A stretch of 64,000 nt of DNA from Candidatus Latescibacterota bacterium (GTDB lineage Bacteria > Latescibacterota > UBA2968 > GCA-2709665): assembly GCA_965205485.1 (NCBI GenBank), contig OZ242180.1, forward strand, positions 288,001 through 352,000, read 5' to 3'. The notes beneath the pieces are model-generated. The model saw only the letters and a program-made list of their open reading frames with translations, had not been told where the DNA came from and made no database searches. How positions within the stretch are numbered: the stretch's first letter is position 1; each line of letters starts with the position of its first letter. This document shows positions 21,163 through 41,665 of the stretch, piece by piece. The position numbers and the translations under genes were made by a program.

Positions 21163-21218
21163 TCTCCGGAACGAGCGGCGTAACCCGATAACGAATCCCC
21201 CAATCGTCACCCTTGCCT

Positions 21219-22214: not shown

Positions 22215-22262
22215 TCGGAGTCGATGGTTGGAATCCACAAGCAGGTACGTTTTTGGACCGTC

Positions 22263-23926: not shown

Positions 23927-24009
23927 GCCGAACTGAACCGTCTGGCGACAGACGCGAACGGAGAGTCGCGCCGGGGTGTACAGTGCGACAAAAAAGGGAG
24001 ACAGTTGCC

Positions 24010-24252
24010 ATGGCTGAAGATATTCAGCAGAAAGTCGTCGATCTCATCGTTGATCAGTTGGGCGTGGATGCCGACAGCGTAACACCGGAAGCCCATTTCA
24101 TAGATGATCTTGGCGCAGATTCCCTCGACACGGTCGAACTGGTGATGGCCTTCGAAGAGGAATTCGATATGGAAGTTCCGGATGAAGACGCCGAGAAGCT
24201 GGAGACCGTCAGCGACGTCACGGTTTATCTCAAGCAACGCCTGAACGAATAG
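24010..24252 (+). CDS. acpP: Acyl carrier protein
   Basis: [20 protein letters not shown]. Confidence 0.97.
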
Positions 24253-24411
24253 CCGGCCGCAGACGGGACGGGCAGTTTCAACGGCTGGCGGCGCCCGTGA
24301 AGCGACGTCTCGACGTCAGGACTTGAGCGCAAGACACACGGTGGGCGTGGATTGTTCGACGATGCCGAAGTTCCGTGCCGATGCAAACACGATACCAGGG
24401 AGAAGGTGCCC

Positions 24412-25665
24412 TTGAACGGAAACCGAAGGGTTGTGGTGACAGGCCTCGGCGTCCTCGCGCCGAACGGATTGAACACCGAAGCCTACTGGGAGGCGTTGCT
24501 CAATGGAGAGAGCGGCGTCGATCACATCGGCAGATTCGATACGACGGGATTCAGGGTTACGTTCGGCGCCGAATTGAAGGATTTCGACGCCCAACGGTTC
24601 GGTCTCGACCGTAGACTGGCCAGGCGCAACGATCTGTGCACCCAGTATGCCATCTGTTGCGCGCAAATGGCTGTAACGGACGCCGACCTGGACGTGGACG
24701 CCGGAAACCCCGACCGGATGGGCGTGGTTTTCGGCTCGGGCATCGGAGGTATCTGGACCTTCGAAGATCAACACACCGTCCTCCTCGAGAAAGGCGCCCG
24801 GCGGATCAGCCCGTTCTTCATCCCCATGATGATTCCGGACATGACGTCGGGGCAGGTTTCCATCCTGCTCGGCGCCAGAGGGCCGAACTATACCACCGTG
24901 TCCGCCTGTTCCTCGGCCGCCCACGCCATCGGATGCGCCTTCAGGGAAATCCGCCACGACGAAGCCGACGTCATGGTTACCGGCGGCGCCGAAGCGGCCG
25001 TCAGCGCCATGTCGCTGGGGGGTTTCGCTTCGATGAAGGCGCTTTCCACGCGCAACGAGGACCCGCAAGCGGCCAGCCGTCCTTTCGACCTGGAGCGTGA
25101 CGGATTCGTGCTTGGCGAGGGGTCCGGCGCGCTCATACTCGAAGAACTGCAACACGCGCGGCGGCGGGGCGCACGAATCTACGCAGAGATTTCAGGAGCG
25201 GGTTTCACTGCCGATGCGTATCACGTCACCGACATGGCCCCGGGCGGCGAGGGCGGCGCACGGGCGATGAGAATCGCACTGAACCAGGCAGGGCTGAACC
25301 CGGAGGACGTGGACTACATCAATGCCCACGGCACGTCGACCCCGATCGGCGACCGGACCGAAACCGCGGCCATTAAATCCGTCCTGGGAGATCACGCGCG
25401 ACAAGCTGCGGTCAGCTCCACCAAATCCATGACGGGCCATCTGCTGGGCGCCTCCGGCGCGATCGAGAGCATCGCCTGCCTCCTGGCCATCCATCACGGC
25501 CGCGTGCCACCCACCATCAACTACGAACATCCCGATCCGGAGTGCGACCTGGACTACGTGCCCAACACGGCACGGGAAATGCCGGTCCGCGTGGCCATGA
25601 ACAACTCCTTCGGGTTCGGCGGGCACAACGCCGTGCTCGCGATGCGCAGCTACGACGGCCGATAA
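24412..25665 (+). CDS. fabF: Beta-ketoacyl-ACP synthase II
   Basis: RRVVVTGLG, SACSS, NAHGTST, KSMTGHLLG, NNSFGFGGHN; start at TTG 24412 or GTG 24406. Confidence 0.95.
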   Translation: MNGNRRVVVTGLGVLAPNGLNTEAYWEALLNGESGVDHIGRFDTTGFRVTFGAELKDFDAQRFGLDRRLARRNDLCTQYAICCAQMAVTDADLDVDAGNPDRMGVVFGSGIGGIWTFEDQHTVLLEKGARRISPFFIPMMIPDMTSGQVSILLGARGPNYTTVSACSSAAHAIGCAFREIRHDEADVMVTGGAEAAVSAMSLGGFASMKALSTRNEDPQAASRPFDLERDGFVLGEGSGALILEELQHARRRGARIYAEISGAGFTADAYHVTDMAPGGEGGARAMRIALNQAGLNPEDVDYINAHGTSTPIGDRTETAAIKSVLGDHARQAAVSSTKSMTGHLLGASGAIESIACLLAIHHGRVPPTINYEHPDPECDLDYVPNTAREMPVRVAMNNSFGFGGHNAVLAMRSYDGR

Positions 25666-25683
25666 TCCCCGCAGGTAAAGCTC

Positions 25684-26433
25684 ATCGGACTTGTTAAAAT
25701 CAGACATACGGTTGCACGCTGGCTCGGGCGCGACCGGGTAGCGCACACACCGGAAAGTCTCCAGGAAAAACTCGGCTATCGTTTTTCGGATCCCGATCTC
25801 CTGGTCCAGGCGATCAAACACCGCTCCTACGTCTACGCCGTTGACGAAGGGAGCATCGCTTCGAACGAACGGCTCGAGTTTCTCGGCGACGCCGTACTGG
25901 ACCTGCTGGTCACGGAAAACCTCTATCGGAAGTTTCAGAACAAACGTGAGGGCGACCTCACGCAGATCAAATCCGTACTCGTCAGCAAAGTCATTCTCGC
26001 GCAACGGGGCCGCGCAATCGGACTCGGTCACCACATCCTGCTCAGCAGGGAAGAAGACCTGGCGGGAGGAAGAGACCGGACGTCGATCATCGGAGATGCT
26101 TTCGAGGCAATTCTGGGCGCCGTCTATCTCGACGGCGGCCTCAAGGCCGCGGACGCCTTCGTTCAGCGCCACCTCCTGAGCAACATCGAGGGAATTGTCG
26201 CCAATAGCAGCTTTCTCAACTTCAAGAGCGTCCTTCTGGAGCATACGCAGGGGGAAGGCCGGGGACACCCCCGCTACCTGGTCAGCTCGGAAGAGGGTCC
26301 GGACCACCACAAGACGTTCAGTGTCGAGGTGTTGATCGCCGGCGAACGAATGGGCTTCGGAAAGGGACGAAGCAAGAAGGAGGCGCAACAGATGGCGGCG
26401 AAAGAGGCGTTGCAGAAGCTGGGAGTCTCCTGA
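25684..26433 (+). CDS. rnc: Ribonuclease III (start uncertain; absent from the ORF track)
   Basis: Frame 1 reads LQEKLGYRF..HRSY..SNERLEFLGDAVL..GDAFEAILGA, with dsRBD GPDHHKTF..GKGRSKKEAQQMAA. Confidence 0.9.
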   Translation: MGLVKIRHTVARWLGRDRVAHTPESLQEKLGYRFSDPDLLVQAIKHRSYVYAVDEGSIASNERLEFLGDAVLDLLVTENLYRKFQNKREGDLTQIKSVLVSKVILAQRGRAIGLGHHILLSREEDLAGGRDRTSIIGDAFEAILGAVYLDGGLKAADAFVQRHLLSNIEGIVANSSFLNFKSVLLEHTQGEGRGHPRYLVSSEEGPDHHKTFSVEVLIAGERMGFGKGRSKKEAQQMAAKEALQKLGVS

Positions 26434-26436
26434 TTC

Positions 26437-27312
26437 ATGCAGGAAACCGGATCGCGTTCATGGCGTTTCCTGAACACCGGGTCGGGGAACGCCTTTTTCA
26501 ATATGGCCGTGGACGAAGCCATCGTGCGCGGCGTTGAGGCGGATACGTCGCCGCCCACGGTACGGACGTTCGGCTGGACGCCGCCCGCGGTCTCTTTCGG
26601 ATACGCCCAGAGGATCGGCCGCGAAGTCGACGCGGACCGATGCCGGCAGCGCGGCATCCACCTGGTCCGCCGGCCGAGCGGTGGGCGCGCCGTCCTCCAC
26701 TGGAACGAACTCACGTACAGCGTCACCTGCCGCGCCGACGACCCGCTGCTGGGCGGCTCCATTCAGGAGTCCTACCGGAAAATCAGCGCCTGCCTGGTTG
26801 CAAGCCTGCGACTTCTGGGCGTGGACGCCCGATTCGAGCCGCGACGCAATCCGGTTTCGTCTCCCCGCGGAGAAGGCCTCACTTCGCCCTGTTTTTCGAG
26901 TACCACGCAATACGAGGTTACGATTCACGACCGGAAGATCATAGGCAGCGCCCAGCGGCGTCTGGGCGGCGTGCTGCTTCAACACGGCTCGCTGCTTCTG
27001 GGTCCGGAACACAAGCGTCTCATCGAACTCATGCCGGACCGTCGCGAGCCCCTGAAGGAACGCTTTCGTCGGGAACTGGACCGGCACACCGTCTCCCTTG
27101 CGGAAGTGGGCCGCCCCTCGGACTTCAACACCGTGGCGCGCGCACTGCGGGACGGTTTTGTAGAGACCCTGGGCATCTGCCTGACAGGAGCGACGTTGTC
27201 TCCCGAGGAAACCGCAGACGCCGAACATCTCGTTGAAACCAGGTACGGCACGGAATCCTGGAACCTGGGCGACGGCCTGCGCCAACCCCGCATCGTCCGC
27301 CGCATCATATAG
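26437..27312 (+). CDS. Lipoate-protein ligase A family protein (LipM-like octanoyltransferase)
   Basis: NMAVDEA, VRRPSGGRAVLH, KIIGSAQ, LQHGS. Confidence 0.88.
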   Translation: MQETGSRSWRFLNTGSGNAFFNMAVDEAIVRGVEADTSPPTVRTFGWTPPAVSFGYAQRIGREVDADRCRQRGIHLVRRPSGGRAVLHWNELTYSVTCRADDPLLGGSIQESYRKISACLVASLRLLGVDARFEPRRNPVSSPRGEGLTSPCFSSTTQYEVTIHDRKIIGSAQRRLGGVLLQHGSLLLGPEHKRLIELMPDRREPLKERFRRELDRHTVSLAEVGRPSDFNTVARALRDGFVETLGICLTGATLSPEETADAEHLVETRYGTESWNLGDGLRQPRIVRRII

Positions 27313-27360
27313 CGTCAATTCGAAGAATCAGCCTGGCCGTCTCCTTGCCGACTCCCATAA

Positions 27361-27520
27361 CAGCCCGTTGAAAAAGTCCATCCGGGCTACGGCCGGCCCT
27401 TGCGGTCGAAATACGGCGTTGCGCTCCCTCGCCGAATCGAGGGATGGGACTCGGTCGCGCGCCTTGTCTTCGACCACAATGACTCGGCCTCGCCTGCAGA
27501 GCGACTTTATCAACGGACTG
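27361..27520. mobile_element. 160-bp MITE-like element with terminal inverted repeats
   Basis: Ends cagcccgttgaaaaagtc and gactttatcaacggactg; second copy inverted at 30059-30382. Confidence 0.85.
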
Positions 27521-27527: not shown

Positions 27528-27968
27528 ATGGACAAACCGAAGACGTCCGAATCGGCACCTGAACTCCGCTGGTCGGTCCATCCCCTCCTCGAAGAACCGC
27601 CCGCGAAAACCGGCCTGCTCATCCTGGTCATCCTGGCGCTGTCGGTTCTGATTGCCATTGAATTCGGCGTGCCGGCGTACGGTTTTCTTTCGACGGCGCT
27701 GCTCACGGCATCCATGTCCCGTTACTTTCTCCCCACGCGATACGCGCTCCTGGAGAGGCATATCCTTATAGCGCACCTTGGCGCGCGGCGGACCATTCCG
27801 TGGAACCGGATTCGCCGGCATACCGTCGTCCCGGACGGCGTCCTTCTCAGCCCGTTCGCCCGTCCAAACAGGCTCGATCCGTTTCGAGGCTGTTTCCTGC
27901 GCGTTCGTGACAATCGGGAGAAAATCATCGAGTATGTCCAGACCCGCCTCGCGGATGCAGCGCCTTAG
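27528..27968 (+). CDS. Hypothetical membrane protein (2 TM plus PH-like region)
   Basis: Two hydrophobic segments, YFLPTRY, LSPFARPNRLDPFRG; overlaps the next gene. Confidence 0.75.
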   Translation: MDKPKTSESAPELRWSVHPLLEEPPAKTGLLILVILALSVLIAIEFGVPAYGFLSTALLTASMSRYFLPTRYALLERHILIAHLGARRTIPWNRIRRHTVVPDGVLLSPFARPNRLDPFRGCFLRVRDNREKIIEYVQTRLADAAP

Positions 27969-28281
27969 AACCTGGTGCGAACACGCTTTCGCTGTCAACC
28001 CTCCGGAGAGCCGAATCACGGAGGAAGAACGCGCTCTGGCTGCCAAAATGGCGGAATTCGTCGTTCGCCGGCAGATGACCACACCCGCGTTGATGGTTCT
28101 GGAAGCCGGCAGGCCGTTCAACTTTATAGGCAGTCAGTTTTTGGCTTTTCTTTCCCCCTTTGTCACACTTATCTTCTCAGGCGCGGAATACGGTCGATTC
28201 GTGCGTTTTCTGGAGAAACGACAGAGCGTCCAGACACTGATCGATACCCTTGTGGAGACGGAAAACAGACGGAATGGATAG
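27955..28281 (+). CDS. Conserved hypothetical protein
   Basis: VVRRQMTTPALMVLEAGRPFNFIGSQF; overlaps genes on both sides. Confidence 0.75.
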   Translation: MQRLRTWCEHAFAVNPPESRITEEERALAAKMAEFVVRRQMTTPALMVLEAGRPFNFIGSQFLAFLSPFVTLIFSGAEYGRFVRFLEKRQSVQTLIDTLVETENRRNG

Positions 28282-30058
28282 ACCGGACGTCATCATCGCC
28301 ACGGACTGCGGCAGCACGACCACCAAGGCCATTCTTATCGAGAAAAAGGAGGAATGCTACAGGCAGACCTTTCGCGGCGAGGCGCCCACCACGGTCGAGG
28401 CGCCGTTTGAAGATGTCACGCGGGGCGTCCTCAACGCCATCCAGGAAGTCGAGGAACTCTCCGGGCGCGCCATCCTGGACGGCGAACGCATCATCACGCC
28501 CGCGGCAGACGGCCGCGGCGTTGACATTTATGTGTCCACCAGCAGCGCCGGGGGCGGCCTGCAGATGATGGTGGGCGGCGTTGTCCAGGCGATGACGGGC
28601 GAGAGCGCCCAGCGTGCGGCCCTGGGCGCCGGCGCCATCGTCATGGACGTGCTCGCTTCCAACGACGGCCGCCTGCCCCACCAGAAAATCGAGCGCATCC
28701 GCCATTTGCGTCCCGACATGGTACTCCTGTCCGGAGGAACGGACGGCGGTACCGTGAGCCACGTGGTGGAACTGGCGGAGTTCATCGCCGCGGCGGACCC
28801 GAGGCCGCGGTTCGGCGCCGGCTTCCGGCTCCCGGTCATCTATGCCGGAAACAGGGACGCGCGGGAGGACGTTCAACGGGTTCTGGGCGAAAAAACCGCG
28901 CTGAAGACCACGGACAATATCCGCCCTCAACTCGAACGCGAGAACCTGGGACCCGCGCGCCAGGTAATCCACGACCTCTTCCTCGAACACGTGATGGCGC
29001 AGGCGCCCGGGTACCGTAAACTGATGGAATGGACGGGCGCGCCCATTATGCCAACGCCCGGCGCGGTGGGCCTGCTCATTCAGACCGTCGCCCGGCGCCG
29101 GAACATCAACGTCGTGGGCGTCGACATCGGCGGGGCGACCACCGATGTCTTCAGCGTTTTCGGCGATCCATTCAACCGTACCGTTAGCGCCAACCTGGGC
29201 ATGTCCTACAGCATCTCGAACGTACTGGCCGAGGCAGGCCTGTCGAACGTCATGCGCTGGGTCCCATTTGAAATCGAAGAGGCCGACCTCAGAGACCGCG
29301 TCAAGAACAAGATGATCCGGCCGACCACCGTGCCGCAGACGCTGGAGGAGCTGCAGCTCGAGCAGGCCATCGCCCGCGAGGCATTGCGCCTGGCGTTCGA
29401 GCAGCACCGTGCACTGGCCGTAGGACTGAAGGGGGTGCAGACGGAACGCACCCTTTCCGACGCTTTCGATCAGACCGCCGCGGGCGAGAGCCTGATTCAC
29501 ATGCCGGACCTGGACCTCCTGGTGGGCAGCGGCGGGGTTCTTTCCCATGCGCCCCGGCGCGCGCAGTCGGCGGCCATGCTCATCGACGCCTTCCAGCCCC
29601 GGGGATTCACGAGGCTGGCCGTCGACAGCATTTTCATGATGCCCCACCTGGGCGTCCTGACAAGCGTCAATGAACAGGCCGCCGCCGAAGTGTTCGAACG
29701 GGACTGCCTGGTCGATCTGGGCACCTGTATTGCGCCTTCCGGGCAGGGAAAACCGGGCGAAGTCTGCGCCACGTACGAGATCTCGCTCGATGACAGCACA
29801 GAGTCCGGCGACCTGAAAGTCGGCGCCCTCCATATGTTCCAAGGGGACCCCGACCAGGAGGTCGACGTCAGCCTGCATCCCGAATCGGGTTGGGACGCCG
29901 GGGCGGGGGCCGGTCAGTCGATCCGACGCACGGTGAAGGGCGGCGTGGCCGGTCTGATCCTGGATGGGCGCGGACGGCCGCTTCCGTTTTCGGACGGGGA
30001 CGGGGTGGAGCGGGTTGCCGCCTGGAACAGGGCGTTGGACCTCTATCCCCGTCAATAG
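28274..30058 (+). CDS. GlmL/MutL-like (glutamate mutase L family) actin-fold ATPase
   Basis: Phosphate-1 TDCGSTTTKA, SSAGGGL, GGTDGG, IMPTPGAV, phosphate-2 VDIGGATTDVFS, GSGGVL. Confidence 0.85.
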   Translation: MDRPDVIIATDCGSTTTKAILIEKKEECYRQTFRGEAPTTVEAPFEDVTRGVLNAIQEVEELSGRAILDGERIITPAADGRGVDIYVSTSSAGGGLQMMVGGVVQAMTGESAQRAALGAGAIVMDVLASNDGRLPHQKIERIRHLRPDMVLLSGGTDGGTVSHVVELAEFIAAADPRPRFGAGFRLPVIYAGNRDAREDVQRVLGEKTALKTTDNIRPQLERENLGPARQVIHDLFLEHVMAQAPGYRKLMEWTGAPIMPTPGAVGLLIQTVARRRNINVVGVDIGGATTDVFSVFGDPFNRTVSANLGMSYSISNVLAEAGLSNVMRWVPFEIEEADLRDRVKNKMIRPTTVPQTLEELQLEQAIAREALRLAFEQHRALAVGLKGVQTERTLSDAFDQTAAGESLIHMPDLDLLVGSGGVLSHAPRRAQSAAMLIDAFQPRGFTRLAVDSIFMMPHLGVLTSVNEQAAAEVFERDCLVDLGTCIAPSGQGKPGEVCATYEISLDDSTESGDLKVGALHMFQGDPDQEVDVSLHPESGWDAGAGAGQSIRRTVKGGVAGLILDGRGRPLPFSDGDGVERVAAWNRALDLYPRQ

Positions 30059-30382
30059 CAGTCCGTTGACAAAGTCGCTCTGCAGGCGAGGCTTGGTGTC
30101 CCGTCCCGGAAATATGTCACCATTGGTCCGCCGATTCATCCCGTCTGGCGGCGTTGCCTTCGCTCGGTGACCTTGCGCAGGTCGCCTCGCTCAGGCGCCT
30201 TGCCAGCCGGGCGACTCGGCGTCCGAATTTCGGCAATCTATTTCCGGGTCGGAACACTTGCCATTGTGGTCGAATGCAAGGCGCGCAACCGAGTCCCATC
30301 CTGCGATTCGGCGAGGGAGCGCAACGCAGTATTTCGACCGCAAGGGCCGGCTGTAGCCCGGATGGACTTTTTCAACGGGCTG
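30059..30382. mobile_element. MITE copy 2 (inverted), interrupted by a nested element
   Basis: Ends cagtccgttgacaaagtc and gactttttcaacgggctg; both arms match the reverse complement of 27361-27520. Confidence 0.85.
30096..30257. mobile_element. Nested 162-bp MITE with 19-bp TIRs and TTG target-site duplication
   Basis: TTG|gtgtcccgtcccggaaata ... tatttccgggtcggaacac|TTG. Confidence 0.8.
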
Positions 30383-30407
30383 ACAAGCGTTGCAAGGGAG
30401 GCAAGAG

Positions 30408-32249
30408 ATGGCTAGAGTGTGCGGATTGGTAATCCTTGGATTGTTTTTCGTCTCTGCAGCCGCAGGCGAAGACGAAACCCCCTGGGAGAAAGTTCAGAGA
30501 ACGCTATTGGATACGAAGGAAGCTCCCGCTATCGTACTGGACGGAACGGAACGGGTACCCGCCAGGTACGCCGGCGATATCCAACCGGAATACGGAGACT
30601 GGATGGTTCGCCACTTCCTTTCCGATCCGGAGAATTTCAACCCGTACGTCTCAAACGACAGAGGCGCTTCCATCGTACACCAATACATCTTCGAATCACT
30701 CCTCGAGATTGAGAACGAATCGCCTTACAATCTCAGAGGGTTGGTTGCGAAGGGGCCCCCCGAGGTGTCCGAAGACAAGCTCACCTACACCTTCGACCTG
30801 CGCGAGAACGTCCATTTCGCGGACGGCAAGCCCCTCTCGGCGGACGACGTCCACTTCAGCATCAAAGTCATCAAGAACCCGAAAGTCCTGGCTGCCTCGC
30901 TTCGGAACTATTACGCGGCCATCAGCGACGTCGAGCAGGAGGGCAAATACAGAATCAGTTTCGTCTGCCGGGAACCCTATTTCAGGAACAACATCTCACT
31001 GGGTTCCATGGAGATTCTGCCGAAACATTTCTACGACCCCGACGGCCTGCTGGACCCCGTTGACATTGGAAGTCTCATCGACGGGTCCTGGGAAAACGGG
31101 CCGCACGCGGAGCGGGTGGAGCAGTTCGCCGAGACATTCAACACCGGCTACCATCGGAAAATGCTCGGCTCCGGGCCCTATCTCGTGGCAGACTGGGACG
31201 CAGACGTGATCACAGGGCAAAAGGTGATACTTACCCGCAATCCCAACTACTGGGGAGGGGGCCGGACCGATCTGATGCCCAAGGGATACGTGGAAAAGGT
31301 CGTCTTCAAAATCGTGAACGACCCTGAAGCCGCGTTCATAGAGCACACCAACGGAAATATAGACTACTTCGGGCTCAGGCCGCTTCAGTTCAAGGACAAG
31401 AGCTGGTCTCCGGATTTTATCGAGCGATTCAAGAAGAGCGTGATCTATTCTTCGGGATACGTGTACATCGGCTGGAACAACGCGCACCCCATCTTTCGCG
31501 ACCGACGCGTACGCAAGGCCATGACCTACCTCACCGACCGTGAAAGCATGGTGGTGAACCTCATGTTCGGTCTGGCGGAAACCGTTGAGAGCCCCATCCA
31601 CAAGTTCCGCCCGGAATACAACCACAGCCTGGAGCCCCACCCTTACGATCCCGACAGGGCGCTTGACATTCTGGATGAGGCCGGATGGACGGACAGCGAT
31701 AACGACGGCATCCTGGACAAGGTCATCGACGGAACGATACACCCGTTTAAATTCGAGTTCCTGGTCAACTCAGGGAACCAGCTCCGCAAAGACATCGCCC
31801 TGGCGCTGCAGTATGAACTGCAGGACATCGGAATCGTCTGCGAGGTGCGCGAACTGGACTGGACCATCTTTCTGGACCGGGTGGTTCGCAAGAAAGACTT
31901 CGCCGCCTGTACGCTGGGGTGGACCGGCAGCCTGATCATCCCCCCGGACTCCTATCAGATCTGGCATTCCTCACAGTCCGAGGGACAGGGGTCGAACTAT
32001 ATCGGCTTCAGGAACGAGGAGGTTGACCGCATCCTGGAATCCTATCGACGGGAGTTCGATATGGACGAGAGAATCCGGCTCTACCGGCGTTTCCAGGAAA
32101 TCCTGTACAACGAGCAACCCTATACGTTTCTCTGGAAATCACGCGCCGCCACTTCCTACAGCAGGCGCTTTGCGGGGGACAGCTGGTACGCCGGTGGCCC
32201 GGATACCCAGGAATGGTGGGTAGGCGCTTCCAACCGGTTGTATCAATAG
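30408..32249 (+). CDS. Peptide ABC transporter substrate-binding protein (family 5)
   Basis: Signal peptide, YTFDLRENVHFADG..SADDVHFS, GSGPY, DRRVRKAM; GGAGG RBS. Confidence 0.92.
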   Translation: MARVCGLVILGLFFVSAAAGEDETPWEKVQRTLLDTKEAPAIVLDGTERVPARYAGDIQPEYGDWMVRHFLSDPENFNPYVSNDRGASIVHQYIFESLLEIENESPYNLRGLVAKGPPEVSEDKLTYTFDLRENVHFADGKPLSADDVHFSIKVIKNPKVLAASLRNYYAAISDVEQEGKYRISFVCREPYFRNNISLGSMEILPKHFYDPDGLLDPVDIGSLIDGSWENGPHAERVEQFAETFNTGYHRKMLGSGPYLVADWDADVITGQKVILTRNPNYWGGGRTDLMPKGYVEKVVFKIVNDPEAAFIEHTNGNIDYFGLRPLQFKDKSWSPDFIERFKKSVIYSSGYVYIGWNNAHPIFRDRRVRKAMTYLTDRESMVVNLMFGLAETVESPIHKFRPEYNHSLEPHPYDPDRALDILDEAGWTDSDNDGILDKVIDGTIHPFKFEFLVNSGNQLRKDIALALQYELQDIGIVCEVRELDWTIFLDRVVRKKDFAACTLGWTGSLIIPPDSYQIWHSSQSEGQGSNYIGFRNEEVDRILESYRREFDMDERIRLYRRFQEILYNEQPYTFLWKSRAATSYSRRFAGDSWYAGGPDTQEWWVGASNRLYQ

Positions 32250-32265
32250 AGTTGGCCCCAATAGG

Positions 32266-32447
32266 AAAAAACGGCATCCGGGCGTCGTGATAAAACCCTC
32301 CGAAACAGGGAGTTAACGTCGTATGGAAGGACATCCTTTCAGTTGACGTCCAGTGACTTGGTGTATCCTGGTAATCCGCAGTTTAATCGCCTTTATCAAC
32401 TTTCACACATTCGGTTTAACGTCCACGAAAACATACGAATCCTGGTT
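32266..32447. repeat. ~180-bp conserved intergenic element, copy 2
   Basis: Direct, ungapped diverged copy of 20236-20417. Confidence 0.85.
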
Positions 32448-32480
32448 AACGGACGCCGGCACGGAGAGGCCTGAAGGCAG

Positions 32481-33782
32481 ATGATCCAGTACATCCTGCA
32501 GCGCAGCCTGCTGATGATCCCGACGATGATCGGTATCACCCTGATCTCGTTCCTGGTCATGCATCTCGCTCCCGGAGACCCCGTGGACTTCTTTCTCGGC
32601 GGCATGGCGGGGGAGGAGGGCATCTCGACAGAAGGGCAGTCCGATTTCGAAAAAACGCGCGAGGACCTTCGGCGGCAACTCGGCCTGGACCGGCCGGTTC
32701 ACATCCAATACCTGAACTGGCTGTCCAGCCTGGTTCTGCACGTGGAGCCGCTCAACAACTTCGAACGCATGGGCCGCCGCGTCGACGTCTATCTCTCGAA
32801 ACTGGACAGCGGGGAAAGAAGCGAGTTGGCAGCGCTTGAGAATAAGGCGCGTAAGGCCCGGTTTCTCAGGAGTTTCGAGAAACATCACCCGGACGAGGCG
32901 GAAGCGCTCGTCCTTTCCTCTTTCTGGGAGAGCAAGACGGTCAAACTCGAGAAAAACTATGAGTACACCGGCGCCGGCCTGCTCCTCTTCCACCTCTTCG
33001 ACCGGCGCTTTATCACGCTCAATTTCGGCCGCTCCTTCAAGGATCAGCAGCCGGTCATCTCCCATATCCTCGCACGCGTGCCTATCACCATCGAAATCAA
33101 CGTCATCAGTCTGATCGTGGCTTACATCATCGGTCTGCCGCTGGGTATATGGCTGGCCGTGAAACAGGACACCCGGACCGACCGCGCGCTGACCACGGGA
33201 ACCTTCATCCTGTGGTCCATGCCTTCATTCTGGGTGGGCATGCTGCTCATCGTGTTTTTCTGCAACAAGGAATTCTTCTACTGGTTTCCGGCCTCCGGCA
33301 TCCAGTCGCTGGACGCCTCTTCCGAATGGGGATTCTGGCGGCTGTTGACGGACCACGCCCATCACATGGCCATGCCGGTCCTGGCCTCGAGCTACGCCAG
33401 CTTCGCGGGTCTTTCCCGGTTCATGCGGACCAGTATGCTGGAGAACATGAGGCTGGATTACGTACGCACGGCCCGCGCAAAGGGGCTTTCGGAAAAAGTC
33501 GTGGTCCTGAAGCACGTCTTCCGCAACTCGCTGATTCCCATCGTGACCATTCTGGCGAATCTGCTTCCGGCCATCATCGCCGGCTCGGTCTTCATCGAGA
33601 CCATCTTCACCATACCGGGGCTGGGGTATCTGGGCGTTCAATCCGTACTCGTGCGCGACTATCCGATGGTGATGGCCATTCTGACCATCGGTTCGTTTCT
33701 CTCGCTGCTGGGTATTCTTCTCGCGGACATCCTCCTGAAAGTCGTGGACCCGCGCATCGAGTTTTCCCGTCTTCAGGGATAG
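32481..33782 (+). CDS. Peptide ABC transporter permease, OppB/DppB-like, with an extracytoplasmic insertion
   Basis: APGDP, LGLDRP, DYVRTARAKGL, ETIFTIPGLG, DPRI. Confidence 0.92.
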   Translation: MIQYILQRSLLMIPTMIGITLISFLVMHLAPGDPVDFFLGGMAGEEGISTEGQSDFEKTREDLRRQLGLDRPVHIQYLNWLSSLVLHVEPLNNFERMGRRVDVYLSKLDSGERSELAALENKARKARFLRSFEKHHPDEAEALVLSSFWESKTVKLEKNYEYTGAGLLLFHLFDRRFITLNFGRSFKDQQPVISHILARVPITIEINVISLIVAYIIGLPLGIWLAVKQDTRTDRALTTGTFILWSMPSFWVGMLLIVFFCNKEFFYWFPASGIQSLDASSEWGFWRLLTDHAHHMAMPVLASSYASFAGLSRFMRTSMLENMRLDYVRTARAKGLSEKVVVLKHVFRNSLIPIVTILANLLPAIIAGSVFIETIFTIPGLGYLGVQSVLVRDYPMVMAILTIGSFLSLLGILLADILLKVVDPRIEFSRLQG

Positions 33783-33786
33783 ATCC

Positions 33787-34857
33787 ATGCCTGACGCTAC
33801 AGCCCGCGACCTCAACGAACCGGACGTCGCAACGCCCGAACCCGAACCTGTCGAGGAGGGTCAGACCTACTCCAAACTGGTCTGGCGGCAGTTCAAGAAG
33901 AACCGTCCGGCCCTCATCAGCCTGGCGGCGATCGGCGTTCTCGCGTTCACGGCGGTGTTTGCAGATCTTCTCGCGGGCAACAAACCCTACTATATGGAGT
34001 ACAGGGGAAAGACCTATTTCCCGGCCTTTCGCCAGTATGCCGTTCATCTCGGGCTGGCCGACTGGCCGAAGCCGCTCAGACGAAGGAAGAATTTCAAACG
34101 TCTGAGGTCGGAATCCGCCATATTCCCGCCGGTTCCCTACGGTCCCAGCGACGTTAACCTCAGGGACAAGTACCAACCGCCCGGCGCAGCGCATTTCCTC
34201 GGTACGGATCGGCTGGGACGGGACGTGCTTTCGGGGCTGATCCATGGAACCCGTTACGCGCTCACGATCGGACTGGTCTCGGTGGCGATCTCGATGATTA
34301 TCGGCGTCGCCCTCGGCGCACTCGCGGGTTATTTCGGGGGCTGGACCGACCTGGTTCTCTCGCGTCTGTTCGAGCTCTGGGCCGCCATACCCACCCTCTT
34401 CCTGATCATCACGGTCGCCGCGTTCTTCCCGCCCAGCCTTTTCTTCGTGATGATCATTCTCGGCTTTACGGGATGGGTCGGGATCGCCAGGCTCACGAGG
34501 TCGCAGTTTCTGCAGGTAAGGAGCTACGACTTCGTTTCCGCGGCCAAGAGCCTGGGATACTCCAGCGGACGAATCATGTTCATCCACATTCTGCCGAACG
34601 CGATCGCGCCGGTACTCATTCCGGCTGCTTTCGGCGTGGCGGGGGCCATTTTGGCCGAGTCCGGCCTGAGCTTCCTCGGGATCGGCGTTCCCGCGGAGGC
34701 CATCACCTGGGGCGCGATACTGGCAGGCGCACGAAACAATACCGCGGCCTGGTGGCTGGTCATCGTACCCGGTTTCGCCATCTTTATCACCGTAACCCTT
34801 TACAACCTTTTGGGCGACGGCCTGCGAGACGCCCTGGACCCGAAGATGAAAGTTTGA
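33787..34857 (+). CDS. Peptide ABC transporter permease, OppC/DppC-like
   Basis: LGTDRLGRD, HILPN, ESGLSFLGIG, LGDGLRDALDP. Confidence 0.93.
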   Translation: MPDATARDLNEPDVATPEPEPVEEGQTYSKLVWRQFKKNRPALISLAAIGVLAFTAVFADLLAGNKPYYMEYRGKTYFPAFRQYAVHLGLADWPKPLRRRKNFKRLRSESAIFPPVPYGPSDVNLRDKYQPPGAAHFLGTDRLGRDVLSGLIHGTRYALTIGLVSVAISMIIGVALGALAGYFGGWTDLVLSRLFELWAAIPTLFLIITVAAFFPPSLFFVMIILGFTGWVGIARLTRSQFLQVRSYDFVSAAKSLGYSSGRIMFIHILPNAIAPVLIPAAFGVAGAILAESGLSFLGIGVPAEAITWGAILAGARNNTAAWWLVIVPGFAIFITVTLYNLLGDGLRDALDPKMKV

Positions 34858-34935
34858 AAAGCCGTGTGAAGACTCCGCAGGCCGTAGATCGTTGCCGCCG
34901 CCGGCGCGGCATGCCGGTTACGCAAATTTGAAGCC

Positions 34936-36057
34936 ATGGCTCATACGTACACACCGGGGCTGCGGGTCACCCGCAGGGCAACCATACGAAAGAGACGCCA
35001 GTTGCCGCTCGCAGGAGAGGTGCTGGTTTCTGAAGGGGAAACCGTGCAGCGCGACCGGGTGGTGGCCCGGACCGAACTGCCCGGCGACGTGACCACCCTG
35101 AACCTGGTCAACAGGCTGGGCGTCACCCCGGACGAACTCCCGGACTTCATGCTCAGGAAGGAGGGTGAGCCGGTCGAGTCGGGAGAGCCTCTGGCCGAGA
35201 CCCGCCCGTTCATCAAGTGGTTCAAAACCACGGTGGAATCGCCGGTTTCAGGCACCGTGGAAAGCGTGTCGCCCGTTACCGGCCAGGTTATTCTGCGGGG
35301 GCCGCCCCGACCCGTACAGGTCAGGGCGTACGTGGACGGCGCCGTTGTGGAAACCATTCCCGGCGAAGGGGTCGTCATCGAGACCGCCGGCGCATTCCTT
35401 CAGGGTATCTTCGGCATCGGCGGGGAAAGCTGGGGCGCTATCCATCCACTTGCCGCCACACCGGACGAGCGGCTCTCGGAAGACCGGATCGACGCCTCCT
35501 GTGCCGGCAGGATCTGCATCGCCGGAGGCCTGGTCACCCTGGACCTGATCCGGAAAGCGCGGGAAATCGGCGCGGCCGGCGTCATTGGCGGGGGCATCCG
35601 CGACCGCGACCTGCGGAGCCTTCTCGGTTACGACCTGGGCGTGGCCATCACCGGCACCGAGGAAATCGGTCTTACCGTCGTGGTTACCGAAGGATTCGGC
35701 GACATCGCCATGGCGACGAAGACCTTCGACATCCTGAACGAGAGAAACGGCGACGAGGCCTCGATCTCGGGCGCGACCCAGATACGAGCCGGCGTGCTTC
35801 GTCCGGAAATCATCGTTCCGGATACGGGAAGTACAGCGACCGCCGAGGAATCCGTCGCCACGGAAGGCCTTTCCGTAGGAGACCCGATCCGGACGATTCG
35901 GGCGCCCTTTTTCGGACAGACCGGTGTCGTCACGGCTCTGCCGTCCAAACTCGCGGCCGTTGAGTCGGAAGTTCGGGTACGTGTCCTTGAAGTTCAATTC
36001 GAGAACGGACAACAGGCCGTGATACCCCGCGCAAATGCCGAAAGGATCGAGGCATGA
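34936..36057 (+). CDS. Hypothetical protein with barrel-sandwich-hybrid-like repeats and KOW-like C-terminus
   Basis: VLVSEGETV, KEGEPVESGEPLA..SPVSGTVESV, TEGFG, TQIRAGVLRPE, VGDPIRTIRAPFFGQTG. Confidence 0.8.
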   Translation: MAHTYTPGLRVTRRATIRKRRQLPLAGEVLVSEGETVQRDRVVARTELPGDVTTLNLVNRLGVTPDELPDFMLRKEGEPVESGEPLAETRPFIKWFKTTVESPVSGTVESVSPVTGQVILRGPPRPVQVRAYVDGAVVETIPGEGVVIETAGAFLQGIFGIGGESWGAIHPLAATPDERLSEDRIDASCAGRICIAGGLVTLDLIRKAREIGAAGVIGGGIRDRDLRSLLGYDLGVAITGTEEIGLTVVVTEGFGDIAMATKTFDILNERNGDEASISGATQIRAGVLRPEIIVPDTGSTATAEESVATEGLSVGDPIRTIRAPFFGQTGVVTALPSKLAAVESEVRVRVLEVQFENGQQAVIPRANAERIEA

Positions 36058-36107
36058 TGATTTGGAGCGTCCAGGCGCGCCTGATTAAAACCGCCAGGAG
36101 ACACGCA

Positions 36108-37289
36108 ATGGCGCATCTATTCCTCAGTTTCGCCCTTGCCATCGCTGCCGCGCCGGCCGCCGGCGGTTCGGCGCCCACCGACGTCCGGGCTTTCGACACG
36201 CCCAACGACCAGGGGCACAGCATCACGCTGACGTGGCGCCGCCTGGATTTCCTGCCGGACAGCGCGCGATATCGCATCGGCGTTTCCGAACAGGCGGACG
36301 GGCCGTTCCATCCGGTTGCGGAACTGGACCCCAAAACGGCTCCGACCATGGCCGACGAGGCGGTCACGTTCGGCAGGGGGAAGGAGAACCGCAACCACCA
36401 CTTCGTCCACATTGAATCCTACTTCGACCCTCTGGGACAAAACCGGATCCGGATCGAGAACGACCGGCCCTATTTCGTTCGCATCGGCGTCCACGGCGCG
36501 GGCTACACGGTTGTGGAAGCCCGTGCCCACGGCAACTGGTTCAACTGGACCAAGCGCAACAATTTTCTGCTGGCCGCGCTGTTCTCCATTCTGATCCTCG
36601 TCTATATCCGTCTCGCCCGGCGCAAAAATCTCTATATCCGGCGGCTGGCAGGACTGGACGCCCTGGACGAAGCCCTGGGTCGCGCAACCGAGATGGGTAA
36701 ACCGGTGCTTTTCGTCCACGGCCTTCAGGACATGGGCAGCCCCTCCACCATCGCCGCCGTGAATATTCTCGGACAGGTGGCGAAGCGAACCGCCGAATAC
36801 GATACCCTGCTCAAGGTTGGCAACCGGGATCCGATTGTGATGTCCGTGAGCCAGGAAGTGGTCAAGGAGTCTTGCATCGAAGCCGGACGACCCGACGCGT
36901 TCAACCCTGACAACGTCTTTCTGGCGGCCGCGGACCAGTTCAGCTACGCGGCCGCGCTCGATGGGCTGATGGTGCGGGAGAGGCCGGCGGCCAATCTTCT
37001 GATGGGGTATTTTTACGCCGAATCCCTGCTTCTGGCCGAGACCGGCTCGACGACCGGCGCAATTCAGATCGCCGCTACCGACGCCTATACACAGCTTCCG
37101 TTCTTCATCACAACCTGCGACTATACCCTGATGGGTGAGGAACTCTACGCGGCGAGCGCCTATCTCTCCAGAGATCCCAAACTGCTGGGAAGCCTGAAGG
37201 GCCAGGACCTGGGGAAGGGAATTCTCATCCTGATGCTGGTGCTGGGTTCCTTATTGGCCGGCATCGGCTTCTGGCCGATCCTGATCTGA
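36108..37289 (+). CDS. Fn3-like plus DUF6754-like membrane protein
   Basis: Signal peptide, AFDTPNDQGHSITLTW, TM, IRRLAGLDALDEALGRATEMGKP, TTCDYTLMGEELYAASAYLS; AGGAG RBS. Confidence 0.75.
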   Translation: MAHLFLSFALAIAAAPAAGGSAPTDVRAFDTPNDQGHSITLTWRRLDFLPDSARYRIGVSEQADGPFHPVAELDPKTAPTMADEAVTFGRGKENRNHHFVHIESYFDPLGQNRIRIENDRPYFVRIGVHGAGYTVVEARAHGNWFNWTKRNNFLLAALFSILILVYIRLARRKNLYIRRLAGLDALDEALGRATEMGKPVLFVHGLQDMGSPSTIAAVNILGQVAKRTAEYDTLLKVGNRDPIVMSVSQEVVKESCIEAGRPDAFNPDNVFLAAADQFSYAAALDGLMVRERPAANLLMGYFYAESLLLAETGSTTGAIQIAATDAYTQLPFFITTCDYTLMGEELYAASAYLSRDPKLLGSLKGQDLGKGILILMLVLGSLLAGIGFWPILI

Positions 37290-37329
37290 CAGCATAGCAT
37301 ATACGTTCAATCCTTCGGGAGAAAACCGA

Positions 37330-37986
37330 ATGTACTTCCTGCAACGCACCCTGCCGCTCCTCGTTGCCTTTGCCGCGGGCGTGATCGGCATATTCACCTA
37401 TTATATCCCGGTTGCGCAGCCGGTGGAGATCACAACGTCCACGTGGTACCGGATCATCGCCGCGTTCGCGCTCTTCCTGGGAATCCACAGTCTGTTGCAG
37501 ATGCACTGGAACCGGGTCAAACGCAAACAGGCCGGATGGGCTTTCAGCGCCGTCGTCTTTGTCGGCTTCATCGTTACGATCCTGCTTGCCCTCTACAACA
37601 ACGGCAGCGGACCCCTGCAGCCGCTCGCCGGGGGCGACGGTCTGGATCTGAACTGGATGTATACGCACATTCACGTCGCCGGCGGCGCCACGATGTTCTC
37701 TCTGCTCGCGTTCTTTATCGCCTCCGCCGCCTACCGCACGTTTCGCGCCCGGTCGGCCGAGGCCGTTGTGCTTCTCGTTGCCGCGCTGCTCGTCATGCTG
37801 GGCCGGGTGCCCATCGGCGCGCTGATCTCCGAACACCTGCCCGCCATTTCACAGTGGCTGATGGCCACGCCCAACCTCGCCGCACGACGCGGCATTCTGC
37901 TGGGCGTGAGCCTGGGCGCAATCGCCACGGCACTTCGCATCATATTCGGTATCGAACGATCCTATCTTGGAGAAGAGGGACAATGA
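37330..37986 (+). CDS. Hypothetical multi-pass membrane protein
   Basis: About 6 hydrophobic helices; ATMFSLLAFFIASAAYRTFRAR, LRIIFGIERSYLG. Confidence 0.8.
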   Translation: MYFLQRTLPLLVAFAAGVIGIFTYYIPVAQPVEITTSTWYRIIAAFALFLGIHSLLQMHWNRVKRKQAGWAFSAVVFVGFIVTILLALYNNGSGPLQPLAGGDGLDLNWMYTHIHVAGGATMFSLLAFFIASAAYRTFRARSAEAVVLLVAALLVMLGRVPIGALISEHLPAISQWLMATPNLAARRGILLGVSLGAIATALRIIFGIERSYLGEEGQ

Positions 37987-38810
37987 TCGAGCGCCTCCTG
38001 AACATCGACCGCCGCATTGTGTACCTTGCCGTCTTTCTGGCTGTATGTATTCCTCTGCTTATCGGGTTCGAACTGCCCATCAAGGCCACACCAAACGTCC
38101 GCGCGGTGTACGACACCGTCGAGAGCCTGGCCGGAAATCCGGATGCCGTCGTGCTCATCTCCTTCGATTACGGACCCAGTTCGCAGCCGGAGCTCCAGCC
38201 CATGGCCCTGGCCATTCTGCGCCACTGCTTCAGCCGGAACATACGGGTGGTGGGCGTGACCCTCATTACAGAAGCCGTAGGACTTGCCATGCAGGCTTTC
38301 GAGACGGCGGCGACGGAATACGGGCGGGAAAACGGGACTGACTATGCGTTCCTCGGTTTCAAGGCGGGCGGCCCGATCCTGATCCTGAACATGGGTCAGG
38401 ACCTGCACGCCGCGTTTCCCGAAGACATCCGGGGCGCCGCCACCAGCGAAATGCCTCTCACCCGCAATCTGCGTTCGTTGAAGGATTTCGATTACGTGAT
38501 CGATCTGGCCGCCGGGTACCCCGGCGTGGACGAATGGATCGCTTACGGGCAGGAACGTTACAGGTTCCCCCTCGGCGCCGGTTGTACCGCGGTAATGGCG
38601 CCGGATTTCTTCCCCTTCCTTCAATCCCGGCAGCTCAACGGCCTTATCGGCGGGCTGGCGGGCGCGGCGGAATACGAAGCGCTCGTGGGCAAGAAAGGCC
38701 TGGCCGTAAGCGGCATGCGTCCACAGTCCGTCGCACATATCGTCATCATCGGGTTCATCCTGCTGGGCAACGCGGTCTACTTCCTGGGCCGCGGCGCTTC
38801 GAGGACGTAA
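37983..38810 (+). CDS. Hypothetical membrane-anchored protein
   Basis: IDRRIVYL, SFDYGPSSQPELQP, GLIGGLAGAAEYE; ATGA overlap with the previous gene. Confidence 0.8.
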   Translation: MIERLLNIDRRIVYLAVFLAVCIPLLIGFELPIKATPNVRAVYDTVESLAGNPDAVVLISFDYGPSSQPELQPMALAILRHCFSRNIRVVGVTLITEAVGLAMQAFETAATEYGRENGTDYAFLGFKAGGPILILNMGQDLHAAFPEDIRGAATSEMPLTRNLRSLKDFDYVIDLAAGYPGVDEWIAYGQERYRFPLGAGCTAVMAPDFFPFLQSRQLNGLIGGLAGAAEYEALVGKKGLAVSGMRPQSVAHIVIIGFILLGNAVYFLGRGASRT

Positions 38811-38822
38811 AGGTACATCGGT

Positions 38823-39566
38823 ATGCAAAGAGAACACCTCGTCTTCCCGATCTTCCTTCTGCTTTTTGCGGCCGTGAATGTCTATCTCCTGGCCGCCGGC
38901 AGCCTGGAAGCGAGCTGGTCGGGGTTCGGCATCATCCTCGCCGCGGGGATCACGCTGGCTCTGTACAGCTTTCTGTACAGGGACAATCCGCTCTTCAAGC
39001 TGGCCGAGCATCTCTACGTGGGCGTCGTCGCCGCATACGAACTCGCTCTGGTCTGGTACCAGAGCATCCTCGTGGACGTCGTCAATCCCCTGTTCCGACC
39101 GCATCCTGACGCCGGCGTCGACTGGTGGGTGATCGTTCCGGCGTTGCTCGGTCTCTTCCTGATGACCCGCTTTGTCGGCAGGGCGGTATGGCTCAGCCGC
39201 ATCTCGTTCGCCTTCTTCGTGGGACTCGGCGCCGGGTTGGCCATCCCCCGCCGCGTCGCCGCGTTCATCATCGAACAGATCGAGCCCACCATCCGCCCGT
39301 TTTCACAGGCGTCGGCGGACTTCGGGTGGGCCGTGCTGGATCCGGCGATCATCCTGATCGGCGTGTTGAGCGTACTGATTTACTTTTATTTCTCCGTTGA
39401 ACACAAAGGGGTTGTGGGCGGTATTTCCAGGGTCGGCATCTATTTCCTGATGGTTTCCTTCGGCGCTTCATTCGGTTATACCGTCATGGCGCGCATCTCC
39501 CTGCTCATCGGACGCGTGGATTTCCTGCTGGAAGACTGGCTGAATCTGAATCCGCCCCTCTTCTGA
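38823..39566 (+). CDS. Hypothetical multi-pass membrane protein
   Basis: [47 protein letters not shown]. Confidence 0.8.
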
Positions 39567-39675: not shown

Positions 39676-40674
39676 ATGTCGGAACCCCTCCTAACTGTCA
39701 GAGATCTGAAAACATACTTCCATACGGACGGCGGTGTCGCCAGGGCTGTGGACGGGGTCTCCTTCACGCTGAAGAAGGGCGAAACCCTGGGCCTGGTGGG
39801 AGAGTCAGGCTGCGGCAAGAGCGTCACGTCTCTGTCCGTAATGCGTCTGGTACCCGAACCGCCGGGGGAAATCGTCTCGGGCGAGATCCGGTTCAACGGA
39901 CGCGACCTGCTGAGTCTGGACGAGGCCGCTCTCCAGGGCGTGAGGGGCAACGACGTCGCGATGATTTTCCAGGAGCCGATGACCAGCCTCAACCCGGTTT
40001 TCACCTGCGGAGACCAGATTGACGAAGCCGTAATACTCCATCAGGGTCTCGGCAGGGACGCCGCCCGGTCCGTCACGGTGGACATGCTGAACCTGGTCGG
40101 CATTCCGGATCCCGACCAGCGGGCAAACGAGTATCCTCACCAGCTTTCCGGGGGGATGCGCCAGCGGGTGATGATTGCAATGGCCCTGTGCTGCAATCCT
40201 GAACTCCTCATTGCCGACGAACCGACCACGGCGCTGGATGTGACCATACAGGCCCAGATTCTGGAACTTCTGGACCGGCTTCAACGAGAATTGGGGATGG
40301 CCGTCCTGATGATTACCCACGATCTGGGCGTCATTGCGGAGGTGGCGGACCGCGTGGCCGTCATGTATGCCGGAAAGATCGTGGAAACCGGAACGGTGGA
40401 TGAGATTTTCGCCAATCCGCAGCACCCCTACACGGTGGGACTGCTGGAGTCCATCCCCACGCTCAATGAAGAGAAAAGCCGGCTGTCAGTCATTCCGGGA
40501 ACCGTGCCCGACGCCACCCGATTTCCCGCCGGATGCCGTTTTGCGCCGAGGTGTTCATTGGCGGAGGACGTTTGTGCAGCGGACGAGCCGCGCCTGGAGC
40601 CGACCTCGGGCGGCCGCCTTGTGGCATGCTGGATGGTCGAAGATTATCCATCTCCCGTGACGCGATCGGATTGA
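39676..40674 (+). CDS. Peptide ABC transporter ATP-binding protein, OppD/DppD-like
   Basis: [33 protein letters not shown]. Confidence 0.95.
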
Positions 40675-40675
40675 C

Positions 40676-41665
40676 ATGTCCAGACCACTCCTCGAAGTCC
40701 ACGGCCTCAAGAAATACTTCCCGATCACCCGCGGGGTATTCTCCCGGACCGTCGGCTACGTTAAAGCCGTAGACGGCGTCTCTTTCACGATGCAACGGGG
40801 CGAAACCCTGGGCCTGGTGGGGGAATCCGGATGCGGCAAGACAACCGCGGGCAGGAGCATCCTGCGGCTGATCGAAGCCACGGCGGGCCGCGTACTGTTC
40901 AACGGCACAGACGTCTTCGGCCTGAAAAGCTCCGAACTCAGAGCCGTTCGACGGCGCATGCAGATCATCTTCCAGGACCCCTACAGTTCGCTGAACCCGC
41001 GCATGACGGTGGGTGGCATGCTGTCCGAAGCGCTGAAAATCCACAAGCTCACGGACGGGAGCGACACCCGGGAACGCGTGGCCGAACTCCTGGAAACCGT
41101 GGGCCTCCGGCCGGAATACGCCCGCAGGTATCCCCACGAATTCAGCGGTGGGCAGCGCCAGCGTATCGGCATCTCCCGGGCCCTGGCCGTGAATCCCGAT
41201 TTCATCGTTGCGGACGAACCCGTATCGGCCCTGGATGTGTCGATTCAAGCCCAGATCATCAATCTTCTCCAGGACCTTCAGAGCCGGTTCGGCCTTACCT
41301 TCCTCTTCGTCGCGCACGACCTGAGCGTTGTCAAACACATCTCCAACCGCATCGCGGTGATGTACCTCGGACGCATCGTGGAGATCGCGGAAAGCGGTAC
41401 CCTCTGCGGCAATCCGCAGCACCCCTATACCCGCGCCCTGCTATCGGCCGTACCCGAGCCGGACCCGCGCGTAAGGAAACAGCGCACGGTATTGACCGGT
41501 GACGTCCCAAGCCCGGCCAACGTCCCCTCCGGCTGCCCGTTTCATCCGCGCTGCCCCGAACGGGAAGACGCCTGCACGAAGATCGTGCCCGAACTGCTCG
41601 AAATCGACGGTACCCACAGCGTCGCGTGTATTCTTCGGACCGGGCAGCACCTCCGTACGGCCTGA
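40676..41665 (+). CDS. Peptide ABC transporter ATP-binding protein, OppF/DppF-like
   Basis: [33 protein letters not shown]. Confidence 0.95.

Follow-up and report, generated by a model that had tools for sequence, protein, structure and literature searches.

What does an actin-fold ATPase resembling GlmL do among genes for membrane proteins in a genome that lacks glutamate mutase? This question is raised by a gene cluster of a Candidatus Latescibacterota bacterium (GenBank assembly GCA_965205485.1, contig OZ242180.1, positions 288,001 to 352,000, a stretch of 64,000 nt hereafter called the window). The cluster occupies positions 27528-39566 of the window and consists of eight co-directional open reading frames (ORFs) on the + strand, some of them overlapping, which we have named A to H; B to H form the core. 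The original prediction had counted seven genes, which the ORF check corrects to eight. We found that the ATPase, C, and the membrane genes share a common pattern of retention and loss across genomes. They very probably constitute one ATPase-plus-membrane system, and C is almost certainly not an accessory of glutamate mutase. The function that we favour, to which we give somewhat less than an even chance, is that B to H encode an undescribed ATP-energised solute importer. The genes are as follows.

A, 27528-27968, + strand: 146 aa; small membrane protein, its soluble part weakly bPH-like; accessory.
B, 27955-28281, + strand: 108 aa; no known family; core component that sits before C or before E.
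C, 28274-30058, + strand: 594 aa; long GlmL-like actin-fold (ASKHA) ATPase with a C-terminal extension of ~105 aa.
D, 34936-36057, + strand: 373 aa; putative soluble partner of C, with a barrel-sandwich hybrid region, a swivelling beta/beta/alpha domain and a KOW domain.
E, 36108-37289, + strand: 393 aa; signal-peptide-like N-terminus, optional Fn3-like ectodomain, helix, predicted cytoplasmic Rossmann core (DUF6754), helix.
F, 37330-37986, + strand: polytopic membrane protein; five helices scored, probably six; invariant ASAxxRxFR loop.
G, 37983-38810, + strand: one helix on either side of a predicted extracytoplasmic alpha/beta domain; His252 and Asn263, both invariant, lie in or at the last helix.
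H, 38823-39566, + strand: polytopic, six helices scored; invariant Glu62, Arg126, Glu193 and Arg224.

The overlaps are 14 nt (A/B), 8 nt (B/C) and 4 nt (F/G), and G and H are spaced by 12 nt; an alternative upstream ATG for E at 36054 would create a further overlap of 4 nt with D. A promoter and terminator scan performed no better than chance.

The Pfam model MutL (PF13941) matches C at 432 bits, and the phosphate-1 and phosphate-2 motifs of the actin fold are intact (D11-CGSTTTK and D284-IGGATTD), their positions being nearly all invariant across 63 homologues (T17 is invariant). The nearest named relatives, at 92-97% identity, are from Latescibacterota. In the accessible text of two papers, MutL/GlmL is described as a chaperone that reactivates glutamate mutase (PMC4682846), and its family is assigned to the actin superfamily (PMC5597319). 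C could be an ordinary GlmL, or its counterpart Or-4, reactivating a B12 mutase encoded elsewhere, with the membrane genes as bystanders. Apart from the PF13941 match, this is what the name "glutamate mutase L" given to homologues in databases suggests, and there are four matches to the B12-binding domain elsewhere in the genome. The scores nevertheless argue against it: C reaches 233.8 bits with the GlmL model NF040745 (cut-off 475), 215 bits with the Or-4 model NF040744 (cut-off 600) and 166.8 bits with TIGR01319 (cut-off 204). As a positive control, a short, true GlmL of sibling genomes passes the GlmL cut-off in both copies scanned (552 and 568 bits); one copy directly follows glmS and the copy in genome G040 abuts glmE. 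The last 107 model columns of C, which correspond to its C-terminal extension, are missing from these two proteins, and C shares 33% identity over 342 aa with the true GlmL of a sibling genome.

In the source genome (97% complete, in a single contig) there is no match to glmE, nor did the sibling glmS and glmE find one as tblastn queries; the ornithine/lysine aminomutase model PF09043 has no match there, and none in the control genomes either. Across 125 genomes of the phylum, glmE occurs in two, both with a separate GlmL copy beside it, so that constant co-occurrence with glutamate mutase does not obtain. Together with the tight co-loss of C and the membrane genes described below, this largely refutes the role of C as mutase reactivase, which we regard as having next to no chance of being correct. 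The claim of a GlmL-like ATPase without glutamate mutase is thus upheld. Judged by its sequence, C carries ATPase motifs and is separate from true GlmL: it has the Pfam family and both phosphate motifs in common with GlmL/MutL and Or-4, and it differs in falling below all three cut-offs, in its extension, in its putative partner D, in the lack of a mutase and in its linkage to membrane genes. In passing, we noticed that the glutamate-mutase operon appears to be decaying in this genus: nine genomes have the short GlmL (a second PF13941 match above 500 bits), and glmE was detected in no genome but G040 and, as pieces, G041 (loci L087:7435-9290 in G038, L088, L081 in G040, and L082/L083 in G041).

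The association of C with the other genes was surveyed in the 80 best loci around C, many of them on short contigs. D is present in 61, B in 60, E in 50, F in 48, G in 45, H in 44, A in 27 and oppA in 18. The usual gene order is A-B-C-D-E-F-G-H, and the titles of the records include Latescibacterota, Nitrospira, Eisenbacteria, Marinimicrobia and Oligoflexia, among others. Such clustering greatly exceeds what chance would give, this order being repeated in dozens of loci under the names of many phyla. The titles of two records, L026 (Dormiibacterota) and L032 (Lentisphaeria), conflict with their gene content and order, which match the Eisenbacteria- and Marinimicrobia-titled loci; they may be mislabelled bins.

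The co-occurrence in whole genomes is near perfect. In 371 genomes of three phyla, the ATPase and the membrane module are both present in 241 and both absent from 124, with six discordant. In the phylum of the source genome the respective numbers are 111, 13 and one (125 genomes; the discordant one is a 930-contig assembly): DUF6754 is found in 112 and a strong match to the ATPase in 111, a count that leaves out seven weak matches of at most 29 bits, and among the negatives tested D occurred in none of five and H in none of four. In the phylum of genome G126 both are present in 111 of 125 genomes and absent from nine, with five discordant; among 121 genomes of the phylum that contains the Nitrospira record L080, ATPase and module are found in the same 19, 102 carry neither and none is discordant. 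These counts overstate independence, as the genomes are related to one another and the genes frequently linked. This concern is reduced by three observations. All eight genomes whose fetched ATPase locus had no E to H carry G elsewhere. In a distant ATPase clade (35-45% identity) the linkage to E-F-G-H persists under a different arrangement, B-E-F-G-H-C-D, with H beside the ATPase in 29 of 80 loci, many of them short. In genome G073, finally, the whole A-H block is missing from between oppA and oppB, with flanks that match locus L064 (L241:16307-19469). The proposal that the ATPase partners a multi-gene membrane module is therefore borne out by genes that are unlinked or rearranged as well as by the linked ones: the homologues cluster in other genomes and match no subunits of a known complex. 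That their products form a complex is what we infer from this, as we do the topology, the energy coupling and the transport proposed below.

Within the system, C and D are one functional unit, judging by the frequent fusion of D behind C (in 43 of the top 150 homologues of C). Sequence searches with D gave weak barrel-sandwich matches at most (Pfam, NCBIfam), and its structure was modelled with a predicted local distance difference test (pLDDT) of 88. The barrel-sandwich part resembles RnfC and NqrA (Z 7.2-7.5). The swivelling domain (residues ~152-296) has the fold of enzyme I of the phosphotransferase system (PTS; Z 9.1, root-mean-square deviation 2.7, 105 residues aligned), followed by rifampin phosphotransferase and RraA (both Z 8.8) and the small subunit of aconitase X (Z 8.0), and the KOW domain has a match at Z 8.3. 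The swivelling domain keeps the motifs GVAITGxE and TQIRAGVxRP, and T-x-x-R-x-G-x-x-R-P is near-invariant (39-40 of the 43 C-D fusions). A role of D as lipoyl carrier was considered and set aside: the hairpin Lys is variable (38/53 and 45/53).

The folds of D raise the possibility that C and D are an ATP-dependent enzyme (a kinase, ligase or amide hydrolase, as other ASKHA enzymes are) that converts a substrate delivered by the membrane unit, amounting to group translocation or trans-membrane modification. The swivelling domain has the enzyme matches given above, the near-invariant motif could line an active site, C shows weak matches to the hydantoinase and oxoprolinase models of Pfam, and Sir2 and transhydrogenase dIII rank among the highest matches of the E core. 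On the other hand, D differs from PTS enzyme I and PPDK in having neither a PEP- (phosphoenolpyruvate) nor an ATP-grasp domain, and its swivelling domain has no conserved His: position 222, equated with the enzyme I His by position rather than by superposition, is His in 20 of 53 sequences, Arg here, and not His in the fusions. Nor do conserved pathway enzymes flank the cluster, and it is harder to explain how one enzyme would serve as many as nine divergent membrane units. We consider an enzyme unlikely, while giving it real weight.

A trans-membrane signalling role, in which outer domains sense and C-D relays to transcription, is much less probable still. It would accommodate the N-terminal helix-turn-helix (GntR or HTH_3) present in three of 28 scanned ATPase homologues, the variable ectodomains, and the NusG-like KOW domain at the end of D, whose top Foldseek match is Thermotoga NusG (E 1.2e-5, TM-score 0.12). 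But few homologues have a helix-turn-helix fused to them, the similarity to NusG comes from shared small domains only, and two polytopic subunits with ~12 helices exceed the needs of a receptor. Among other variants, the Bacillota record P0010, named "glutamate mutase L", carries an exported M1 aminopeptidase domain and a helix in the same chain, a rare fusion; P0010, P0003 and P0013 are ATPase homologues with an N-terminal membrane helix.

The membrane unit is composed of E, F, G and H, for which hydropathy scored a signal-like segment plus two helices, five, two and six helices, respectively. G is not polytopic: its two helices flank a soluble domain of ~200 aa. E matches DUF6754 (PF20539) as a full member (E = 7e-114), a family catalogued as a domain only and named in no paper of the literature searched (most subscription journals lie outside its scope). 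This part of the original description of E stands, while its Fn3 domain remains a sequence pattern, the fn3 model of Pfam matching none of 46 E homologues; the ectodomain is absent from 7 of 19 paralogues. The E core was modelled with a pLDDT of 87 as a helix, a six-stranded Rossmann domain and a helix. Its fold matches include Sir2 (Z 11.9, root-mean-square deviation 3.5, 144 residues aligned), phosphoglycerate kinase (10.8), transhydrogenase dIII (10.2) and RCK/KTN domains (9.2-10.0), several of which share a DHS-like nucleotide-binding fold; none stands out, with 266 chains at Z of at least 8, unrelated Rossmann folds included. The bias of Lys and Arg, in segments of unequal length, puts the core of E on the inside (4.3 and 3.3 versus 1.2 and 0.2) and that of G outside (3.2 and 3.1 versus 1.6 and 1.8); the long N-terminal zinc-ribbon tail of G in the distant clade is consistent with an inner N-terminus of G.

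Polar and charged residues are conserved in or at the helices of F and H, and charged ones in those of G also; none of the three has a conserved Cys/His cofactor motif. A, B, G and H have no match in Pfam or NCBIfam and F only weak ones; a PDB sequence search with B, C, D, the E core, F, G and H returned nothing significant, and in the ESM Atlas G matched unnamed clusters only, and the E core, once DUF6754 clusters were excluded, had no usable match. For A, a small membrane protein, the hydropathy scan scored one only of the two helices originally proposed; bPH_6 is matched, weakly, in three of its 25 members, and its presence in 27 of the 80 loci marks it as accessory.

With these features, the complex could be an ion channel, an ion pump or a device that conserves energy, with the nucleotide-binding-like domain of E as its gate or drive, in the manner of RCK, transhydrogenase or Rnf/Nqr. 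E has a membrane-tethered Rossmann domain as do transhydrogenase and RCK-gated K+ transporters, D a barrel-sandwich domain as do RnfC and NqrA, and F, G and H have conserved charges in or at their helices. Yet the Z-scores of 9-10 for transhydrogenase dIII and RCK lie below or level with those of Sir2 and generic Rossmann folds, and there is no sequence match to any of these systems. No protein of the locus matches the families of the Fe-S or flavin subunits of Rnf/Nqr, or RnfD/NqrB, conserved sets of Cys are missing from F, G and H, and no redox genes recur nearby. To our knowledge, up to nine divergent copies in a genome would be unusual for a respiratory complex. This alternative therefore seems to us quite improbable.

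E and G may be inverted paralogues, a hint rather than a result of the profile comparisons. With shallow alignments no relationship was detected; with a deeper one, a colinear match of 107 columns was the best of six pairs (E 0.006, probability 6%), a score equalled by one of 60 block shuffles, and the cores alone gave E 0.04. Between F and H, profile comparisons with shallow and deeper alignments detected no homology. A search for fusions of G to other subunits found none among 8000 long candidates and two insertion variants only, which is weak evidence.

Some genomes contain many more membrane units than ATPases. In the phylum of G126, G is present in one to nine copies per genome, and the five multi-module genomes checked have one or two intact ATPases: the ratio of ATPase to G is 1:4 in G125 and in G127, 1:7 in G145 (two partial) and 2:9 in G154, and G143 has one intact and one broken ATPase against nine matches to G, some of them fragments. 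Within a genome (copy sets of nine, five and five), the E cores of paralogues are 56-61% identical, compared with 37% for the G core, 39-40% for F and 40-42% for H. A conserved E core combined with a divergent outer domain of G is as predicted for a common cytoplasmic dock and a diversifying outer face, and, on sequence comparison, the copy-number and paralogue pattern fits a shared motor with interchangeable membrane units. Group II transporters of the energy-coupling factor (ECF) type are similar in having one energiser, the EcfAA'T module, alongside several dispersed membrane units, the S-components, which in their case are exchangeable (PMC7755397, in its accessible text). In the present system the ATPase is of the actin fold and not of the ATP-binding cassette (ABC) type, the sole ABC ATPases being OppD and OppF of a separable cassette; the exchangeable unit would consist of four proteins and is predicted to have soluble domains on either face; and E to H have no credible match (Pfam, NCBIfam or PDB sequence) to EcfT, S-component or ABC permease families. 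Where units are numerous, the genome often has another, divergent C-D fusion gene at a distance from all modules (L159:7390-10017 in G154, and ~17 genomes).

The distant ATPase clade is particular in several respects. In L162, L163, L164, L193, L224 and ~50 further loci, a zinc ribbon with a long acidic, Pro-rich tail of repeated PxWL occurs on G or on a free-standing upstream gene, and in 29 loci a Pro/Thr-rich two-helix protein is encoded 3′ of D. These features are relevant to the idea of an envelope-building, secretion or motility machine, with C as an actin-like scaffold or motor comparable to PilM/GspL or FtsA. Actin-fold proteins do serve such machines (PMC5597319, in its accessible text), the distant clade combines degenerate ATPase motifs with the acidic Trp-repeat tail and a membrane-anchored Pro/Thr-rich neighbour, and one locus runs on, by eye, into Tol-Pal-like genes. 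Against this, genes for pilins, secretins, porins or peptidoglycan are not recurrent among the neighbours, the ATPase motifs are strictly kept in the main clade, and the system is dispensable, as seen from its clean loss in a sister genus and its patchy presence (19/121). An envelope machine is, accordingly, an improbable explanation, if not a negligible one.

The cluster of the window is interrupted between C and D by genes of an ordinary peptide importer, the rest of which lies 3′ of H:

oppA-oppB-oppC, 30408-34857, + strand: ordinary peptide ABC importer genes inside the cluster; often linked to it, separable.
oppD-oppF, 39676-41665, + strand: ABC ATPases of the interleaved Opp importer; outside the system.

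The oppABC genes of Latescibacterota and of Marinimicrobia-type loci best match those of the window and form one subfamily. An oppB orthologue is matched in 66 of 125 genomes; it is kept in G072 and G073, which lost the system, and the same query found no oppB orthologue in any of the 21 genus g9 genomes that have the system (21/21). Opp as an obligatory partner is ruled out by this distribution and by the block loss in G073.

Other neighbours were inspected for clues to a substrate. Among 57 hand-picked from 140, peptidases C1, M28, M29, S8, M14 and Rce1 are represented; in this sample, which has no proper background, they are not above background as far as testable, and were rejected as a clue. 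Glycine-cleavage genes stand beside the ATPase in 12 of 80 loci and lplA in 13, possibly an old synteny: in loci of WOR-3 and of the Eisenbacteria type, gcvT, H, PA and PB are found immediately upstream of A-B-C (L016:8282-9712, L027:4792-9153, L158, L160), and a gene for lipoate-protein ligase lies upstream in Latescibacterota (window 26437-27312) or downstream of H. In the window, positions 21213-27312 hold an ordinary fatty-acid synthesis cluster (fabH, fabD, fabG, acpP and fabF, assigned by eye) and then this gene. A non-coding repeat with inverted ends flanks A-B-C in two oppositely oriented copies (27360-27520 and 30060-30385); it has 105-117 blastn matches genome-wide, looks like a miniature inverted-repeat transposable element and has no Rfam match. 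After oppF, an ORF at 41824-45390 encodes an exported protein of 1188 aa with a weakly Peptidase_MA_2-like metallopeptidase region and TolB-like propeller repeats.

How might an importer composed of B to H work? The soluble actin-fold unit C-D would dock on an inner-membrane unit of four proteins, E, F, G and H. The outer domain of G would capture the solute, helped in some copies by the optional ectodomain of E, and F and H, with their conserved buried Arg, Glu, His and Asn, would form the transport path. The cytoplasmic Rossmann domain of E would be the docking site for C-D, and C, like its relative GlmL, would spend ATP on remodelling this domain, such that the bound ligand is released into the cytoplasm, which would make transport one-way. 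In its boldest form, the proposal is that of a new class of primary active transporter, the first with an ATPase of the actin/Hsp70 fold, in which a GlmL-type cofactor-extracting chaperone has turned motor, serving interchangeable four-subunit units, each derived from an anciently duplicated and oppositely oriented Rossmann pair (E in, G out), and near-universal in several uncultured phyla. We hold this extended version to be doubtful.

Several points weigh against an importer. We know of no ASKHA-fold ATPase that drives a transporter, and F and H match no transporter family in family and PDB sequence searches. The co-occurrence owes part of its strength to physical linkage and kinship among genomes that are not independent, and the high conservation of the E core is equally compatible with a shared ligand or shared catalysis. 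The phosphate-loop motifs are degenerate in the 15 sequences of the distant clade examined, and one of its sub-groups has C-D and no E to H within up to 8 kb, which counts against a universal catalytic role. The Opp importer, as described above, is separable from the system, and no substrate clue survived testing. FlgD-tailed secreted proteins account for nine of the 57 hand-picked neighbours, which is background for genomes that hold at least 136-150 of them; a search for riboswitches with Rfam (32 sources) gave tRNAs only. Nitrospira and Brocadia are chemolithoautotrophs, and the presence of the system in both is a poor fit to feeding on peptides.

Among described ATPases, diol/glycerol dehydratase reactivase (DdrA) likewise combines an ATPase with a swivelling domain, and its mechanism is a subunit exchange driven by ATP. 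It, too, is a member of the actin superfamily (PMC5597319, in its accessible text), but acts on a soluble B12 enzyme, with no membrane unit, and is not among the fold matches listed for D. In the literature searched, within the scope given above, we found neither a structural paper on such reactivases nor a description of the present system.

None of the machines described so far combines this ATPase family with a membrane complex. The system occurs in ~90% of the genomes that were searched in two candidate phyla, where a genome can have as many as nine membrane units, as well as in Nitrospira, anammox Brocadia, WOR-3, Zixibacteria, Marinimicrobia and a Bacillota record, yet in databases its ATPase goes by the name "glutamate mutase L", which wrongly implies B12-dependent glutamate fermentation. 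If transport is its function, the system would represent a new energising principle beside the ABC, ECF, P-type and PTS systems, to which cultured Nitrospira and enriched Brocadia offer direct experimental entry.

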